Below the pieces are notes generated by a model. That model had not been told where the DNA came from. It searched no databases and saw nothing but the letters and a program-made list of their open reading frames with translations. From IMG/VR virus record IMGVR_UViG_2734482535_000004: DNA of 6,846 nt, one strand, 5' to 3'. Below, in pieces: positions 1-6,846 of the stretch; position 1 is the stretch's first letter; every line of letters starts with the position of its first letter. Position numbers and translations under genes: made by a program. The stretch is from a virus. Taxonomy: Duplodnaviria; Heunggongvirae; Uroviricota; Caudoviricetes.

Positions 1-94
1 CTCAGCATGTTGATGTCCTTTCTGGTGTGAGAACCTTAAGGAAACAACATGTTGGGTGGAGCGGACAATCCAAATGGCGAATTACCGTCTTATA

Positions 95-421
95 TCACTG
101 GCGCTGACACTTCATCACCTCCGGACGTAAATCACCATCCTTTGGTGCATTCAGAAACGCGTTCAGTGTCCCCGGTGCATCAGTCGGTGCCACATCAATA
201 TCCCCGACACGGGTTGGCTGCCAGCCGTTACAGTGAAGCGCAACCTCGTAATACCCCGGCTCAGCCTCAATCACATAAGCACCGTTATTGTCCGTCACGC
301 AAGTGGCAACAACGTGTGCCACAACGGTCGGACTGGTTCTTCTGGCCCGCAGTTCAATCGCACAATTTACGACAGGTTTACCCGCCCCATCTTTCAGTAC
401 ACCTGAAATCTTTACTGCCAT
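95..421 (-). pseudogene. stf: Truncated side tail fibre (Stf) N-terminal fragment, 108 codons
   Basis: ATG at 421-419, just downstream of the lom terminator, encodes MAVKISGVLKDGAGKPVVNCAIELRARRTSPTVV...PGTLNAFLNAPKDGDLRPEV. This resembles the lambda Stf N-terminus (MAVKISGVLKDG...) for about 95 residues, then diverges (MKCQRQ) and hits TGA at 95-97. Full-length Stf is several hundred residues. The ORF-track start at 463 would sit inside the terminator hairpin, so 421 is preferred. Confidence 0.55.
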
Positions 422-432
422 ATTCACCCCAC

Positions 433-457
433 AAAAAGCCCGCCTGAACCAGCGGGC
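433..457 (-). terminator. Rho-independent terminator downstream of lom
   Basis: Minus-strand GCCCGC-TGGTTCAG-GCGGGC (perfect 6-bp GC stem, 8-nt loop; plus 438-457) is followed by TTTTTGTGGGG (A-tract at plus 433-437). It lies 28 nt after the lom stop. Confidence 0.8.
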
Positions 458-484
458 AGTCATAACACTGTGTTACCTGGCTAA

Positions 485-1084
485 TCAGAACTTATAACCG
501 ACACCCACGATGAAACCGTCAGTGCGCCAGTCACCACTGCCGGAACCTTCATAAGCAAGGTCAATGGCCACGGATTCGGTCGGGTTAAACTGCACGCCAG
601 CCCCCCACGCCAGAGACGTGTTGCTGTGGCGACCGCCATCACTTCCGGTCAGCACATCGTGCGTTTTCCCCTTGTTGTCAGTTACGCGGAGATAATCCCC
701 GGAGAAGGTCGACACACGGCTGTAAGCCACGCCCGCCATCGCATACGCGCTGAACCATTCATTCACGCGCACAGACGGCCCCGCCATCACGCTGAACCAG
801 CGGTTACGCACGGAATCCTCATGCCAGCGGGTATCGCTGTAATGCGTTTTTTGCTCATCTTCAGCGTTGGCATAACTGAATGACGTAATCAGCCCCAGCG
901 TGTCCGTAAACTCATAACGGTATTTCACGTTAATGCCCTTCAGGTCATCGCTGCCTGGCATATCAGTATGGGTCTGAAGATACCCGGCGCTCAGCGTGGA
1001 CTGATGTTCAGACGCCCATGCAGGCGCACCGGATACGGCCAGACAGATGGCTGCGGACAAAATGGCTGCACAAACTTTACGCAT
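485..1084 (-). CDS. lom: Outer membrane beta-barrel protein Lom (Ail/Lom family), lysogen-expressed moron
   Basis: 199-aa ORF, ATG at 1084-1082 preceded by GAGAGG, TGA at 485-487. Signal peptide MRKVCAAILSAAICLAVSGAPAWA followed by SEHQ, and a C-terminal ...IVGVGYKF ending in an aromatic residue, as is typical of OMP beta-barrels. Near-identical to lambda Lom as I recall it. Confidence 0.93.
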   Translation of the reverse strand: MRKVCAAILSAAICLAVSGAPAWASEHQSTLSAGYLQTHTDMPGSDDLKGINVKYRYEFTDTLGLITSFSYANAEDEQKTHYSDTRWHEDSVRNRWFSVMAGPSVRVNEWFSAYAMAGVAYSRVSTFSGDYLRVTDNKGKTHDVLTGSDGGRHSNTSLAWGAGVQFNPTESVAIDLAYEGSGSGDWRTDGFIVGVGYKF

Positions 1085-1105
1085 AATTACCTCTCGCTTT
1101 TCTGC

Positions 1106-1132
1106 AATAAAAAAGGCACCATTTCTGGTGCC
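1106..1132 (-). terminator. Rho-independent terminator between J and lom
   Basis: Minus-strand sequence GGCACC-AGAAAT-GGTGCC (perfect 6-bp GC-rich stem, 6-nt loop; plus 1115-1132) is followed immediately by TTTTTTATT (plus 1106-1114). It lies about 20 nt after the J stop and upstream of the lom RBS (GAGAGG, 1086-1091). Confidence 0.8.
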
Positions 1133-1151
1133 CGTATCTGGGTTATAAAAT

Positions 1152-4100
1152 TCAGCTAATCGTGATGCCTGCAGTGGCTTTCTTCATCACCACAACCAGC
1201 AAATCGCTGATACTTGCTGTGGGATACCAGCCATTTACCAGCCATGCCGATACAGAAAACTCCAGCGTCATGTGACCGTGACCGGCAGGCATATCAATAA
1301 CACCCGTATATATCAGCGTATTATCCAGGGTCGTTCGGTTATAAATTTCAGCACCGTTTTTCTTCACTATCAGGCGGCATGACGAATAAATATTGTTATT
1401 CTTCCGCTCATGTTTAGCACCGCGAAACGCCACCGCGGGAATAACAATTTGCCGATCAAACGGCTGATCGTCATAAACCCTGACGGTAATGGTCCCTGAT
1501 GGCCACCTCTCCGGTGCCCGGGAGTCCCGTGGGAAAGGTTTGCCCACTGTTTTAACGAGATCGCCTTCAATCTGGTTCGCGGACAATTTTCCCAGAACCC
1601 GACAGTTCTTATTAATCGTGACGTTGTTGAGCGTCCCGGAGTTCGCGTTCACGTTACCGCTGATATCGGCATTTTTCGCCGTCAGCCGTCCGCCAGGTGT
1701 CAGGGAAAATGCCGGAGGATTACCGCCGCTGGTAATGGTCGGAGCCGTCAGGCATTTCAGGAACACGTCGTTCATGAATATCTGATCGCCCTGACCAACA
1801 AACATCGGCTTTGTGTTGCCATTCGCAGGATTAATCATCGCAATCCTGTCTGCCGCCAGCAGCACCTGACTCTGCATTCCTGCTGGCGTATTCTCAATAC
1901 CGGCACCGATACCCGCAATATAAAGGCGTCCGTCCTTCATCTGTTGCAGCTTCACAGCCCACATGCTGTTCAGGTTATTATTTGTATCAACCTGAACTTT
2001 CTGTATCTGCTGGATTGCAGCACTCTGATTTTCCAGTTTTTTATTGACGGTTTGCGTGATTTCATTGCTGACATTCGTAATGGACGTCCTGATTTCAGTC
2101 AGGTCCGGCGCAAGCTGACCGTTATCAATCTGCGTCCACAACTCCTTGCCGAGATGCGTTTTATTGATCAACCCTTTATAAAAATTCAGATAACCTTCTG
2201 CATCATCGCTCGCCCGACCGATGGCCTCCACAAATGCCGATTTGCCAACGGTGTTCACACTGCGAACGTAAAAATAATAATCATGGCCCGGCCTGATATT
2301 GATACTGGCGGCTATCCAGTACAGCGCCGTGCCAAGATAGCGGGCGCTGGTTTCAACCTGCCTGATATCCGCAATCCGCTTTTCCGAAAACCAGAACTCA
2401 AACTGCACCGTCGGGTCATATACAGCCAGTTTCGGGACCGCCGTTATCTGAAAATACCCCGGTATCAGTTCAATAGTGACAGGCGCTGCCGGTGCCGCAA
2501 TCCGGAACGATACCGACGCCGGATCGCCCTGCTGCCCCCGGGCATTTACCGCCCGGACTGTCAGACTGTAATTCCCCAGCGCCAGCTGCCTGAAGCGGTA
2601 TGTGGTTTCCGTCGTCCTGGCTGTGCTGACCAGCCGCTCACTGCCGTCGTCCGCTGCCACGGTCAGGCGAAGCAGGAAGCTCACACCCTTCACCACCTTC
2701 GGCGTGTCCCATCGCGCCAGCACCTGATATTCCCCGCTGTCTGCGGTGACTTCGGCGGTCAGATGCTGCACCGCTGGCGGCGTGACACCATTCACCGTGC
2801 CGCGCCGGTCACCGTCAAAGTGTGCCCCGTTATCCACGATGGCCTCTTTTTCCGGCACATGCTGCACGGCGGTGATGGCATACGTGCCGTCGTCGTTCTC
2901 ACGGATACTCACGCAGCGGAACAGACGCTGGCGCAGCGTCGGCAGCTTCAGCCCCCACACGCTGTATTCTGCAACGCCGTCAGGAACCCGGCTCACTTTC
3001 ACCTTCACGCCGTCGGTGACGGACTGGACCTCCACGCTGACCGGATTGCCACTTCCGTCAACCAGGCTTATCAGCGTGGTACCGGAGGACGGCAGCGTGA
3101 TTTCACGGTCGAGCGTCAGCGTCCGGGTCTGGCTGTTCACCGCCAGTACGCGACCACCGGTGCTGATACCGGCATAATCATCATCGCAGATTTCAATGAC
3201 ATCACCCGGTACATGGCGAAGCCCTTCTGCGCCCACGCTGAAGTCCACGGTCTGCGTTTCCAGCAGTTCCGTTTTAATCAGCCACAGCCCGGCTCGGTGT
3301 GCCTGCCCCCGGCTGGTACAGCCAAAGGCATCCATCTTCGTGACATTACGACCGTAACGGGCAATGGCCTGCGTATCCTCCACAAGCTCTGTCGCCGTCT
3401 CCCAGCCGTTATCTGGGTCAATCCAGTTCACCTCAACGGCATTATGGCGGTCCTTCAGGGCGCTGAAGCTGTAGCGGAACGGCGCGCCATCGTCCGGCAT
3501 CACCACATTACTGCGGTTATAGGTCCACACCTTATCCGACGGTCGGTCCTGCACGAACGTCAGCATCTGTCCGTTCCATACCGGCATACAGCGCATCGCC
3601 GAGCAGAAATCACTGAGAACATCCCACGCCTTACGCTGTGTGGTCAGGTAAGAGTTACAGGTGATGCGCGGCTCCGTGCCGCCAAATCCGTCCGTCACTG
3701 ACTGGTCGCAGTACTGGCCGATGACATACAGCGCCCATTTGTCCACATCTGCCGCACCAAGACGTTTCCCCATGCCGTAGCGCGGATGAGTGAGCATGTC
3801 CCACAGACACCAGGCCATGTTGTTGCTGTATGCTGGCTTAAGCGTTCCGTCCCAGATACCGCTGTATTGCCGCGTCTGCGGGTTATAGTTCGACGGCACC
3901 TGCAGAATGCGCCCGCGAAGATGATAATTGCGACTCACCTGCTGGTTACCGAACTGCTCTGAATCCACCTGCACGCCGACCAGCGCCGTGTTCGGGTAGC
4001 ACTGTTTCACATCGATGATTTCGGTGTACGACGACCAGAGCGTTTTGTTCTGCAGCTGGTCTGTGGTGCTGTCCGGTGTCATCCTGCGCATCCGGATATT

Positions 4101-4651
4101 AAACGGGCGCGGCGGCAGGTTACCCACCACCACCGAGGCCAGATACTGCGAAGTGGTTTTGCCCTTAATGGTGATGTCTTTTTCCGTCACCCAGCCACCG
4201 TTACGCTGTATCTGAACCAGCAGGCGGACTTCCGACGGATTCCGGTCACCCNNNNNNNNNNNNNNNNNNNNNNNNNNNNNNNNNNNNNNNNNNNNNNNNN
4301 NNNNNNNNNNNNNNNNNNNNNNNNNNNNNNNNNNNNNNNNNNNNNNNNNNNNNNNNNNNNNNNNNNNNNNNNNNNNNNNNNNNNNNNNNNNNNNNNNNNN
4401 NNNNNNNNNNNNNNNNNNNNNNNNNNNNNNNNNNNNNNNNNNNNNNNNNNNNNNNNNNNNNNNNNNNNNNNNNNNNNNNNNNNNNNNNNNNNNNNNNNNN
4501 NNNNNNNNNNNNNNNNNNNNNNNNNNNNNNNATCCACCGGACCGTCAACCGGCCCTTCGCTGATGGCATCAATCACACTCAGCAACTGCGTGGATTTCAG
4601 GTTGTCCTTCGCTTCGCGCGGGGTATGCCCCTTACTGCTGCCTTTACCCAT
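1152..4651 (-). CDS. J: Host specificity / central tail fibre protein J (gpJ-like), interrupted by a 280-nt N run
   Basis: ATG at 4651-4649 gives [40 protein letters not shown] (gpJ N-terminus as I recall it), then the N run. Directly below the gap, 4250-4191 translates as [20 protein letters not shown], then V (GTG at 4190-4188; the ORF track calls it M) and [20 protein letters not shown]..., collinear with lambda J for roughly 700 residues. The frame runs to TGA at 1152-1154. Estimated total about 1160 aa. The frame above the gap differs from the frame below it (see findings). Confidence 0.93.
4252..4531. other. Run of 280 N (assembly gap or masked sequence) inside J
   Basis: Directly visible: 280 consecutive n characters. 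It replaces the region equivalent to about lambda J residues 41-127. Confidence 1.
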
Positions 4652-4673
4652 TCCTCACGCTCCATAAACGACA

Positions 4674-4693
4674 AAACCGCCCGCAGGCGGTTT
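4674..4693 (-). other. Stable hairpin in the I-J intergenic region (8-bp stem aaaccgcc/ggcggttt, 4-nt loop); possible weak terminator or RNA-stabilising stem-loop
   Basis: Plus-strand aaaccgcc-cgca-ggcggttt at 4674-4693 is a perfect inverted repeat. On the minus-strand transcript it is followed by TTGTCGTTTAT, a weak and interrupted U-tract, about 20 nt upstream of the J start. Confidence 0.3.
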
Positions 4694-4711
4694 CACATAA
4701 AACATTTTGCA

Positions 4712-5353
4712 TCAGCGACCAATCACCACAACCTGACCACCATCCCCTTCGTCTGCCGTGCTGATCTCCTGAGAAACCACACGTGACCCCACGCGCATTT
4801 CACCGTACAGAACGGGCAGAACATTGCCCTGGGCAACCATGTTATCCAGTGACGAGAAATACGTGTTCTGCTTACCGTTATCCGTTGTCTGTGTACGGGG
4901 AGTTCTGGCTTTCGGTGCCAGCATCTGTGCAACACCGCCAAGCGTCATACTGGCACCGAGAGAAAACAGCAGATTACTCGCCATAATTCCTACCCCCGGC
5001 ATCCATATAGCAACCGCCATAACAGCCGCCCCCAGCACCGCCTGAAACACACCGCCACTTTTAGCTCCCACCAGACGCGGTACTATGTGGATCACTGCAC
5101 CATTTGCCAGCGGCTCATTAAGACGGGCAGACAATTCGGTTTCACCTGCATCACGCCCGGCAATGCGCACCTGATACCAGCCGTCACTCAGTTTCTGACG
5201 AAACGCCGGGAGCTGTGTGGCCAGTGCCCGGATGGCTTCAGCCCCCGTTTTCACACGAAGGTCGATGCGGCGACCAAATCGTTGTAAATCCCCGTAAAGG
5301 CAGATGCGCGCCATGCCCGGTGACGCCAGAGGGAGTGTGTGCGTCGCTGCCAT
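4712..5353 (-). CDS. I: Tail tip assembly protein I (gpI-like)
   Basis: 213-aa ORF, ATG at 5353-5351, TGA at 4712-4714. Protein MAATHTLPLASPGMARICLYGDLQRFGRRIDLRVKTGAEAIRALATQLPAFRQKLSDGWYQVRIAGRD...NGKQNTYFSSLDNMVAQGNVLPVLYGEMRVGSRVVSQEISTADEGDGGQVVVIGR matches lambda gpI at both termini as I recall it. Its 5' end overlaps the K 3' end by 103 nt (5251-5353) in a different frame, the same overlap I recall for lambda K/I. Confidence 0.93.
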   Translation of the reverse strand: MAATHTLPLASPGMARICLYGDLQRFGRRIDLRVKTGAEAIRALATQLPAFRQKLSDGWYQVRIAGRDAGETELSARLNEPLANGAVIHIVPRLVGAKSGGVFQAVLGAAVMAVAIWMPGVGIMASNLLFSLGASMTLGGVAQMLAPKARTPRTQTTDNGKQNTYFSSLDNMVAQGNVLPVLYGEMRVGSRVVSQEISTADEGDGGQVVVIGR

Positions 5354-6284
5354 TTGTCGGTGTACCTCTCTCGTTTGCTCAGTTGTTCAGGAATATGGTG
5401 CAGCAGCCCGCCGTCACCGCAGTAAATGGCGGCATGATTCGGCACCGATGAACCAAAACAGCACAGCAGCACATCGCCCGGCTGTGCCTCTGTCAGTGCG
5501 ACACGGTAAAAACCCGTCACCTCCATATTGTCAAGATAGAGATTCTGACCGTTACGCCACCAGTCATCCCCGCGATGAAAATCCGGCATCTCAATCCCTG
5601 CCAGATGATAAGCATCCCGGAACAGCGTGTAACAGTCCGTCACCCCGTGCTCAAAGCGCCGCCCGGTGAGATGCGGCACACAGCGGAACTTATGAATCGC
5701 CCCCCGGCAGACCAGCAACCACGGCAAATCACTCTGCACCTGCAGCCGCCGGTCAGCCTCACTCAGCCAGGGCAGACCACCGGGGTGGCTGTGGACCAGC
5801 GCCACAATCTCACCCTGCATTTCTGCCTGCAGCCAGTCCTCCGGAGCCATCCGGAAATAATCCTCCGGCTCACCGGAAATATTCACGCAGGGAAAATATC
5901 TTTCCCCCTCCGGCGTTCTCACCACGAAGCCGCACGACTCCGCTGGCGCACATCNNNNNNNNNNNNNNNNNNNNNNNNNNNNNNNNNNNNNNNNNNNNNN
6001 NNNNNNNNNNNNNNNNNNNNNNNNNNNNNNNNNNNNNNNNNNNNNNNNNNNNNNNNNNNNNNNNNNNNNNNNNNNNNNNNNNNNNNNNNNNNNNNNNNNN
6101 NNNNNNNNNNNNNNNNNNNNNNNNNNNNNNNNNNNNNNNNNNNNNNNNNNNNNNNNNNNNNNNNNNNNNNNNNNNNNNNNNNNNNNNNNNNNNNTCCCTC
6201 CGGCGTTCTTACCACGAAGCCACACGACTCCGCTGGCGCACATCGCCGGGCGTGCGCCAGAATCGCTGATTCTGTCTGTGTCAT
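5251..6284 (-). CDS. K: Tail tip assembly protein K (gpK-like; JAB/MPN + NlpC/P60 domains), interrupted by an N run and a flanking 50-nt duplication
   Basis: ATG at 6284-6282 lies 4 nt after the L stop and encodes MTQTESAILAHARRCAPAESCGFVVRTPEG up to the N run. Below the gap the same peptide CAPAESCGFVVRTPEG reappears and continues ERYFPCVNISGEPED...VHSHPGGLPWLSEADRR (JAMM-type HxH-x7-S-xx-D motif)...GVTDCYTLF...NHAAIY (NlpC/P60-like Cys/His)...GIYNDLVAASTFV, stopping at 5251-5253. The last 199 aa correspond to the classical lambda K annotation. As written the two halves are in different frames; removing the gap plus one repeat copy gives a clean 744-nt, 247-aa ORF. Confidence 0.85.
5905..5954. 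repeat. Downstream copy of the 50-nt direct repeat flanking the N run inside K
   Basis: 5905-5954 (cccctccggcgttctcaccacgaagccgcacgactccgctggcgcacatc) is 47/50 identical to 6195-6244. Both copies encode the same peptide (CAPAESCGFVVRTPEG) on the minus strand. Confidence 0.95.
5955..6194. other. Run of 240 N (assembly gap or masked sequence) inside K
   Basis: Directly visible: 240 consecutive n characters, flanked by the 50-nt direct repeat. Confidence 1.
6195..6244. repeat. Upstream copy of a 50-nt direct repeat flanking the N run inside K
   Basis: 6195-6244 (tccctccggcgttcttaccacgaagccacacgactccgctggcgcacatc) matches 5905-5954 at 47 of 50 positions. The mismatches are at 6195/5905, 6210/5920 and 6222/5932. 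Confidence 0.95.
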
Positions 6285-6288
6285 GGAT

Positions 6289-6846
6289 TTACTGAGAAAG
6301 TTTATTGATGGAAAGGAAACCGCCGAAATTACCGGTATTGTTGCGCAACTCACACCCGCGCATACACTTGCTGCATTTGTCCTTCCGGATATCCGTCGTT
6401 GGTTTGTCGAACTCGTCAGCCACTGCCCTGCCCGTGTAACCACACTCATCAGAACGGTAAGTCCACATACAGGTATTCGCCAGCATGATACGCCCCGGGA
6501 AAACCGCGCCATCCGTCTCCGTTGGTGTGGCCAGCACAAAAGAGGCACTGACCGCGCTCAGTTCGCTGCACTGCTCGATGCGCCAGCGGCTGATCACCTC
6601 CTGTTCCGGATCGGCGTCGCTGTTTCCGTTGACGAAGTTCACCGCATCCAGAAAACGGGCGTAAACCTTACGCCTGACCACCGTTCCGCCGACCAGACTC
6701 TGCAGGTCTTCCGCCATCCCGGTGACCATTCCGTGCAGGTTAGAAACCGTCAGTGTCGGACGGGCAGCACTGCCCTTGCCGTTCAGTTCAAATCCCGTCC
6801 CCTGAATGGGGTATGCCTGATACTGCCGCCCCTGCCAGGTAACCGG
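6289..6846 (-). CDS. L: Tail tip protein L (gpL-like), 5' partial; N-terminus lies beyond the window end
   Basis: Minus-strand frame is open from the window edge (6846, on a codon boundary) to a TAA stop at 6289-6291. My translation of 6721-6846 gives PVTWQGRQYQAYPIQGTGFELNGKGSAARPTLTVSNLHG, continuing into the ORF-track protein MVTGMAEDLQSLVGGTVVRRKVYARFLDAVNFVNGN...GNFGGFLSINKLSQ. This matches lambda gpL as I recall it, including the C-terminal cysteine cluster (DECGYTG...CSKCMRGC) associated with the gpL Fe-S cluster. About 185 of roughly 232 codons are present. Confidence 0.9.
   Translation of the reverse strand, partial: PVTWQGRQYQAYPIQGTGFELNGKGSAARPTLTVSNLHGMVTGMAEDLQSLVGGTVVRRKVYARFLDAVNFVNGNSDADPEQEVISRWRIEQCSELSAVSASFVLATPTETDGAVFPGRIMLANTCMWTYRSDECGYTGRAVADEFDKPTTDIRKDKCSKCMRGCELRNNTGNFGGFLSINKLSQ

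Follow-up and report, generated by a model that had tools for sequence, protein, structure and literature searches.

The apparent interruption of a lambda gpK-like tail tip assembly gene in the 6,846-nt stretch of DNA analysed here, referred to as the window throughout, is very probably an artefact of assembly and not a structure of the DNA, namely an unclosed scaffold gap whose real length is negative. Judged by comparison with finished Shigella sonnei genomes, the K gene of the strain is most likely intact, would encode 247 aa and would carry the allele found in those genomes. The K sequence that is obtained when the repeat around the gap is collapsed appears instead to be a mosaic, in which the end of one contig would have been extended into the allele of a paralogue across 92 nt that both alleles share.

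The reverse complement of the window is the entire public record CWXM01000179.1 (GCA_001257735.1), base for base and including the Ns. Since the Ns are identical in the public record, the idea that they represent a mask set by the data provider was rejected. The series CWXM01000001-CWXM01000362 belongs to Shigella sonnei (ERP001362 / ERS432239 / ERR572889; Page et al., 2016, supplementary file 1, PMC5320598), and the record is scaffold 179 of the 362 scaffolds of this draft, which was generated by the Sanger Institute pipeline. In this pipeline, assembly with Velvet is followed by scaffolding with SSPACE and by gap filling with GapFiller in 120 iterations; both SSPACE and GapFiller are greedy, and false joins are possible (Page et al., 2016, PMC5320598). 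The record hence comes from a pipeline that writes runs of N between contigs linked by read pairs, and the window consists of three such contigs tied by read pairs, located at 1-4251 (4251 nt), 4532-5954 (1423 nt, the middle contig) and 6195-6846 (652 nt, the right contig).

The window holds the tail tip module of a lambdoid prophage remnant, with its genes on the minus strand in the order L-K-I-J-lom. The scaffold ends within gene L, the 3' part of which is present (6289..6846; minor tail protein L, last 185 codons, PF05100 Phage_tail_L). It is followed by K (5251..6284; PF14464 and PF00877), which is split by the false gap, by gene I encoding the lambda tail assembly protein I (4712..5353; PF06805), whose exact protein is found on many contigs, and by J encoding the tail tip or host specificity protein (1152..4651). 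Further downstream on the same strand are lom, encoding an Ail/Lom outer-membrane protein (485..1084; PF06316), and a truncated N-terminal fragment of a tail fibre gene (95..463; 122 aa, PF08400 phage_tail_N). The assignment of K to the gpK family is based on several features. It lies between L and I of the M-L-K-I-J tail tip module, in the same L-K-I-J-lom gene order as lambda gpK, and it shares with gpK an N-terminal Prok-JAB/MPN domain (PF14464) and a C-terminal NlpC/P60 domain (PF00877); after collapse, its length is 247 aa. The two domains are present on the 233-aa fragment between gap and stop and on intact relatives, according to precomputed Pfam assignments, and at the DNA level K is 90-92% identical to lambdoid phages that annotate this gene as 'tail tip assembly protein K'. 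Unlike gpK, the K gene as written is split and out of frame, which is a property of the assembly and not of the gene.

The original prediction had described a run of 240 N in K which is bounded by two near-identical copies of the same coding segment, and this description of the letters is accurate. The run occupies 5955..6194 and comprises exactly 240 N; it separates copy 1 of the repeat (5905..5954, minus strand, K codons 14-30), which forms the last 50 nt of the middle contig, from copy 2 (6195..6244, minus strand, same codons), which forms the first 50 nt of the right contig, and the two copies are identical at 47 of 50 positions. The three mismatches are located where they had been placed, at 5905/6195 (C/T), 5920/6210 (C/T) and 5932/6222 (G/A). 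On the minus strand and in phase with the ATG at 6284, they correspond to Gly30 (GGG/GGA), Val25 (GTG/GTA) and Cys21 (TGC/TGT), so that within the repeat all three fall on third codon positions and are synonymous, as had been stated. The frame arithmetic likewise stands: 5251-6284 spans 1034 nt with a remainder of 2 modulo 3, which places the N-terminus and the body of K out of frame, and removal of the N run together with either copy leaves 744 nt, or 247 codons plus a stop, encoding the same protein whichever copy is removed. The repeat is far above chance expectation, as the best 50-nt direct match in five shuffles of the window reached 30-31 of 50 positions, versus the 47 observed, and the 50-nt pair is the sole long repeat in the window. 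The product sizes that had been suggested for a PCR across the junction are in error, since the written sequence measures 451 nt between primers at 5850 and 6300, the 290 nt included, and the collapsed product would measure about 161 bp and not 450. A second N run, of 280 N, is present in J (4252..4531) and had gone unmentioned in the earlier description.

The K gap was compared with finished genomes. The finished chromosomes used for this comparison are 4.8-4.9 Mb in size and encode a Lom protein identical to that of the window. Positions 1-4251 of the window are identical to these chromosomes throughout (4251/4251; CP023645.1, CP019689.1, CP022455.1 and others), the right contig at 6195-6846 is identical to ten finished loci (652/652), and the three contigs of the window are collinear in the finished chromosomes, in the same order and orientation. 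At the finished loci the middle contig aligns at 5151-6573 and the right contig at 4549-5200, which means that the two contigs overlap by 50 nt and that there is no sequence at all at the place of the K gap. K is intact in these chromosomes, with 247 aa, and its protein is the one named 'C40 family peptidase [Shigella sonnei]' at NCBI. The closest complete E. coli genomes give the same picture, in that the equivalent of 4532-6846 measures precisely 2025 nt in them, equal to 2315 minus 290, and a gene of 744 nt is annotated at K as 'C40 family peptidase'. In finished genomes the flanks of the gap are thus contiguous or overlapping with nothing between them and, as the scaffold itself was built by SSPACE and GapFiller, this supports a false gap. 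The suggestion of a spurious scaffold join between contigs with overlapping ends inside a multi-copy prophage repeat is correct to the extent that the gap is false and the contig ends overlap in such a repeat; the join itself is right in order and orientation, and only the gap is spurious.

In every finished relative the J gap comprises 260 nt, versus the 280 N of the window. As written, J has 3500 nt, with a remainder of 2, and is out of frame; filled with the 260 nt, it is restored to an intact J of 1159 aa. The presence of 260 real bases under 280 N indicates that the N lengths of the record are only estimates, and the K 'gap' is negative in reality, with 240 N written for a distance of -50 nt in the finished genomes. 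Likewise, 273 and 274 N stand in the scaffold CWTP01000056.1 of a sister draft where 262 and 252 nt belong. The length of an N run in these records is therefore not the real distance between the contigs. The size of the error differs, however: at the three other measured gaps the overestimate amounts to +11 to +22 nt, and the larger error at the K gap (+240 versus -50) counts against an artefact.

The alternative that K is truly interrupted, either by a genuine insertion of about 240 nt or by a 290-nt partial duplication arising from unequal crossing-over between prophages, with the 50-nt repeats as its borders, is extremely unlikely. It draws on the 240 N as written and on the positive gap estimate from which they derive, and these Ns are placeholders of the pipeline, whose count is wrong at the J gap of the same scaffold. 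No insert is found in any finished relative with 100% identical flanks, and a similar overlap (449 nt, 87% identical) surrounds a gap in the sister scaffold. Insertion sequences are common in S. sonnei, and an insertion of such an element with target-site duplication would resemble the window in so far as a direct repeat surrounds an unknown stretch within a gene and transposase genes flank the module. Target-site duplications are, however, short (3-13 nt) and identical, whereas the repeat in the window is 50 nt long with three mismatches, its copies match different pre-existing alleles, and no element is present at this site in the finished relatives; the short, identical repeat of a mobile-element insertion is therefore not seen here. 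The same holds for a tandem duplication in situ, the copies of which should be each other's closest relatives. They are not, being identical to one another at 47 of 50 positions while each matches a separate pre-existing allele at 50 of 50. The genuine 290-nt insertion or duplication that had been kept as an alternative is consequently contradicted by finished genomes without the insert, by the wrong N count in J and by the separate allelic identity of each copy.

This allelic identity also bears out the earlier claim that the repeat reflects two real alleles and not sequencing error. Copy 2, with T, T and A at the three variable positions, is identical at 50 of 50 positions to the allele of this locus in the finished chromosome. 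Copy 1, with C, C and G, is identical at 50 of 50 positions to the CB9615-type K allele of other lambdoid prophages. The difference extends well beyond the repeat. The body of the middle contig (4532..5691, minus strand), which covers the C-terminal two thirds of K, gene I and the start of J, matches the finished locus without a single mismatch, followed by 19 differences between 5692 and 5932, the last three of which are the three mismatches within the repeat. Over its final 263 nt (5692..5954, minus strand), the middle contig thus carries a foreign K allele. These 19 differences affect 17 codons, nine with an amino-acid replacement and eight with synonymous changes only. The description of the differences as synonymous-only is accordingly valid inside the 50-nt repeat and fails outside it, where they continue leftward to 5692 and include the nine replacement codons; the synonymous-only pattern is confined to the conserved N-terminal end of K and forms part of a longer allelic difference.

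The foreign allele is a natural and widespread one. K of E. coli O55:H7 CB9615 matches positions 5600-5954 at 100% identity, and a comparison of 5640-5954 with complete E. coli genomes returned K genes with 100% identity in all 15 matches listed, with 159 records at 99% or above. In 15 IMG/VR prophages the foreign allele adjoins an L gene that is only about 84-87% identical to 6195-6846, which indicates that the sequences to the left and right of the gap stem from separate prophage lineages. The match to the locus, which extends to 5691, and the match to the foreign allele, which begins at 5600, share a stretch of 92 nt within the middle contig. The possibility that the tail mixes, base by base, the two prophage types found in relatives of S. 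sonnei was considered and discarded, as the tail differs from both types at 5692, 5717, 5860, 5878 and 5920; its 100% identity to a third natural allele speaks against a mixture as well. The combination found in the middle contig as a whole had no match in complete E. coli genomes, where the best hit reached 98.7% overall and, among 5,426 such genomes, 98.2% for 5450-5954, and none among the 15 IMG/VR prophages with the foreign allele, which were about 91-96% identical to it. A scan of genome contigs with a degenerate version of the 50-mer detected only the loci of S. flexneri SFBU1023 and E. coli ECMA0423, neither of which has both copies.

It had also been proposed that collapsing the repeat restores an intact K. 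An open frame of 247 codons does result; the product is probably not the true K of the strain, being a mosaic of two alleles that deviates from the K of finished genomes at nine residues. The 233-aa K fragment that extends from the gap to the stop is found on exactly one contig of the gene index, namely CWXM01000179.1, whereas the locus allele of K is present on at least 999 contigs and the CB9615-type allele on 92. The mosaic full-length K was absent from about 15 billion proteins in each of its three natural N-terminal versions, and in a homologue search with the collapsed K, which covered 90%-identity cluster representatives only, the best full-length match was 96% identical.

The mosaic could nevertheless be real if the middle contig were right for this locus. 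Natural recombination between prophages, or gene conversion, would then have placed a patch from 5692 to about 5932 into K, the collapsed 247-aa protein would be the true one, and the first 28 nt of the right contig would stem from a second copy of the module. The K alleles of lambdoid prophages are visibly mosaic between genomes, a 5.6-kb identical block in two prophage types implies recent recombination, and the tail of the middle contig agrees at 100% with a single natural allele, without the mixture that voting among reads would leave. Moreover, the module occurs in tandem in a finished chromosome, so a second copy of the locus allele is conceivable. Against this stand the absence of the mosaic K from the protein collection in any of its three N-terminal versions, the confinement of its 233-aa fragment to this single scaffold and the complete identity of the right contig, its first 28 nt included, to the standard locus (652/652). 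In addition, the switch between the alleles is placed within the 92 nt common to both, which is where the extension of a contig by short reads would swap copies. Taken together, a natural recombinant appears unlikely, although it is the least unlikely of the alternatives to an assembly artefact discussed here.

The preferred explanation, a false gap between overlapping contig ends, fits the multiplicity of the module. An E. coli genome contains the module at a median of 2-3 places, with a maximum of 16, and one finished chromosome contains it twice in tandem. The finished locus is identical to that of a complete lambda-like prophage over 5.6 kb (window-equivalent 134-5754), bar one SNP, and diverges beyond this block; in the sister draft this lambda-like prophage shares a scaffold, CWTP01000056.1, with the locus studied here. 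The K gap is thus situated at a repeat boundary where the copies diverge. Partial K proteins of 94, 103 and 107 aa, found in other S. sonnei drafts, stop at this point as well.

From these observations, the following course of events may be proposed. The strain would carry at least two copies of the module, as its relatives suggest, in which two prophage types are known. The copies would fork inside K, and short-read assemblies would break at this point. At the fork, the middle contig would have run on for 263 nt within a K allele from a different prophage lineage, and the right contig would have kept the K allele proper to this locus. The gap would then have been left open because the contig ends overlap by 50 nt with three mismatches, against a positive estimate of the gap length, such that the rule for closure would not have been satisfied.

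The published behaviour of GapFiller is compatible with these steps. The program extends both edges of a gap base by base, using reads whose mates are anchored in the flanks, and settles allelic positions by majority vote; closure requires that the two extensions overlap and that the length filled in deviate from the estimate by no more than 50 nt (Boetzer and Pirovano, 2012, PMC3446322). The gaps it leaves open are mainly repeats, differences between alleles likewise keep gaps from closing, and a wrong estimate can cause correct closures to be rejected (PMC3446322). The K gap may have stayed unclosed because its overlap is mismatched and because the true value of -50 differs from the 240 N by 290 nt. 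As in other repeat gaps left by SSPACE and GapFiller (PMC5320598, PMC3446322), an N run of estimated length joins contigs linked by read pairs, and in this respect there is no difference in kind. The peculiarity of the K gap, compared with the usual gaps of these programs, is that the alleles at its two ends come from different prophages and that these ends run past each other by 50 nt, resulting in an apparent imperfect direct repeat. The size of the gap estimate may be explained in part by 213 nt of the locus allele, from 5692 to the start of the right contig, which the scaffold lacks; with the overestimates of +11 to +22 nt at the other gaps taken into account, this length comes near 240. 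It would agree with a gap length estimated prior to the addition of the foreign tail, although this is arithmetic and not proof.

The foreign tail probably originates from a paralogous prophage in the same genome, an origin suggested by relatives and by the sister assembly, with one of the 362 scaffolds of the draft compared. A second source could be a contaminating or mixed culture of E. coli or Shigella, which would have supplied the second allele in place of a paralogue. The foreign allele was indeed found at 100% identity only in E. coli records and in IMG/VR prophages, and in no S. sonnei record, but the DNA collections searched hold almost no S. sonnei and absence from them says little. 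Multiple lambdoid prophages per genome are the rule, with the median of 2-3 and maximum of 16 places given above, and two prophage types are found within one scaffold of the sister assembly. Contamination is for these reasons quite improbable, and less likely than a paralogous prophage.

The sister scaffold CWTP01000056.1 (GCA_001249755.1) provides a parallel case. It contains the same module with N runs of 250, 265, 273 and 274 in K/I and J, and contigs of two paralogous prophages are strung in series on it. The 449-nt overlap with 87% identity mentioned above surrounds its 265-N gap in K/I and corresponds to the 50-nt overlap around the K gap. Unlike in the window, the overlaps of the sister scaffold are bigger (449 nt and about 1.4 kb), and its breakpoints lie tens to hundreds of bases away from those of the window. 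The same artefact recurs in this assembly, which apparently comes from the same pipeline.

The significance of the K gap is one of data hygiene only. An annotation of the record as written would call both K and J pseudogenes and would, in addition, report an 'imperfect 50-nt direct repeat' that has no counterpart in the cell. Nor is the repair that suggests itself a safe one: collapse of the repeat yields an open frame, yet one in which two prophage alleles are combined, as the end of the contig would already have run on into the paralogue. Caution is therefore advisable for pseudogene counts, calls of prophage integrity and allele catalogues that are derived from such scaffolds in multi-copy prophage regions, all the more as the artefact recurs in the sister assembly.

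Some minor observations concern the remainder of the module. A terminator scan of the spacer between I and J detected nothing above the thresholds. In finished genomes the tail fibre fragment is followed by transposase genes, which presumably belong to an IS element. A Lom protein identical to that of the window is indexed in 1874 blocks of the collection, most of them on contigs of 5-10 kb, and a repeat bounded by IS elements on one side and by the fork in K on the other would give contigs of such sizes.

The tail genes represented in the window can be followed into finished genomes, where the same module can occur in more than one copy. The segment equivalent to window 134-5754 forms a 5.6-kb block that differs by one SNP between two distinct lambdoid prophages, namely the IS-flanked remnant that carries the window's locus in a finished chromosome (L016) and a complete lambda-like prophage (L024; compared over positions 9600-15220). 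This block comprises the C-terminal part of K, I, J and lom, whereas the two loci diverge sharply in the N-terminal part of K, L and M, a pattern suggestive of resident prophages having recently recombined or undergone gene conversion with each other. In one finished chromosome (CP019689.1, about 4,617,000-4,651,000; L009 and L017), the M-L-K-I-J-lom module is present twice in tandem, with an IS3-family transposase gene between the copies, and the outer contigs of the window are 100% identical to each of them.

K as recorded also differs among genomes. In several E. coli records the K protein measures 275-347 aa and contains in-frame internal duplications of 28-100 residues (P0001-P0005); these enlarged proteins reflect either further misassemblies of a multi-copy K gene or real duplications. 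One of them is located on a 4.85-Mb contig, and the same sequence is found in UniRef for nine E. coli. In the finished chromosome CP022455.1 (L011 and L019), K carries a 1-nt indel relative to the others and the K gene call is absent, which is due either to a real frameshift or to a sequencing error. The annotated start of K also depends on the gene caller: most genomes have a protein of 247 aa with both domains, and two (L008 and L014; 5255-5854) have one of 199 aa in which NlpC/P60 is the sole domain.

The scaffold has a further gap inside J, where a run of 280 N (4252-4531) lacks any flanking repeat. In all finished relatives the corresponding interval measures 260 nt, and filling it in yields an intact J of 1159 aa, as opposed to the out-of-frame J written in the window. 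The 60-nt spacer separating I and J contains a G+C-rich hairpin, AAACCGCC-CGCA-GGCGGTTT (4675-4694), which remained below thresholds in a terminator scan of this spacer.

At the far end of the module, only an N-terminal fragment of the tail fibre gene is present (95-463, 122 aa). The scaffold stops at the point where, in finished genomes, transposase genes adjoin the truncated gene. In related genomes with a prophage of this type, an IpaH-family type III effector gene encoding LRR_TTSS and NEL domains lies directly past the prophage's tail fibre genes, in L004 (NZ_CP065613.1, 874,430-876,000) and L015 (17079-18830); FDAARGOS_944, the closest 'E. coli' genome, is therefore Shigella/EIEC-like.
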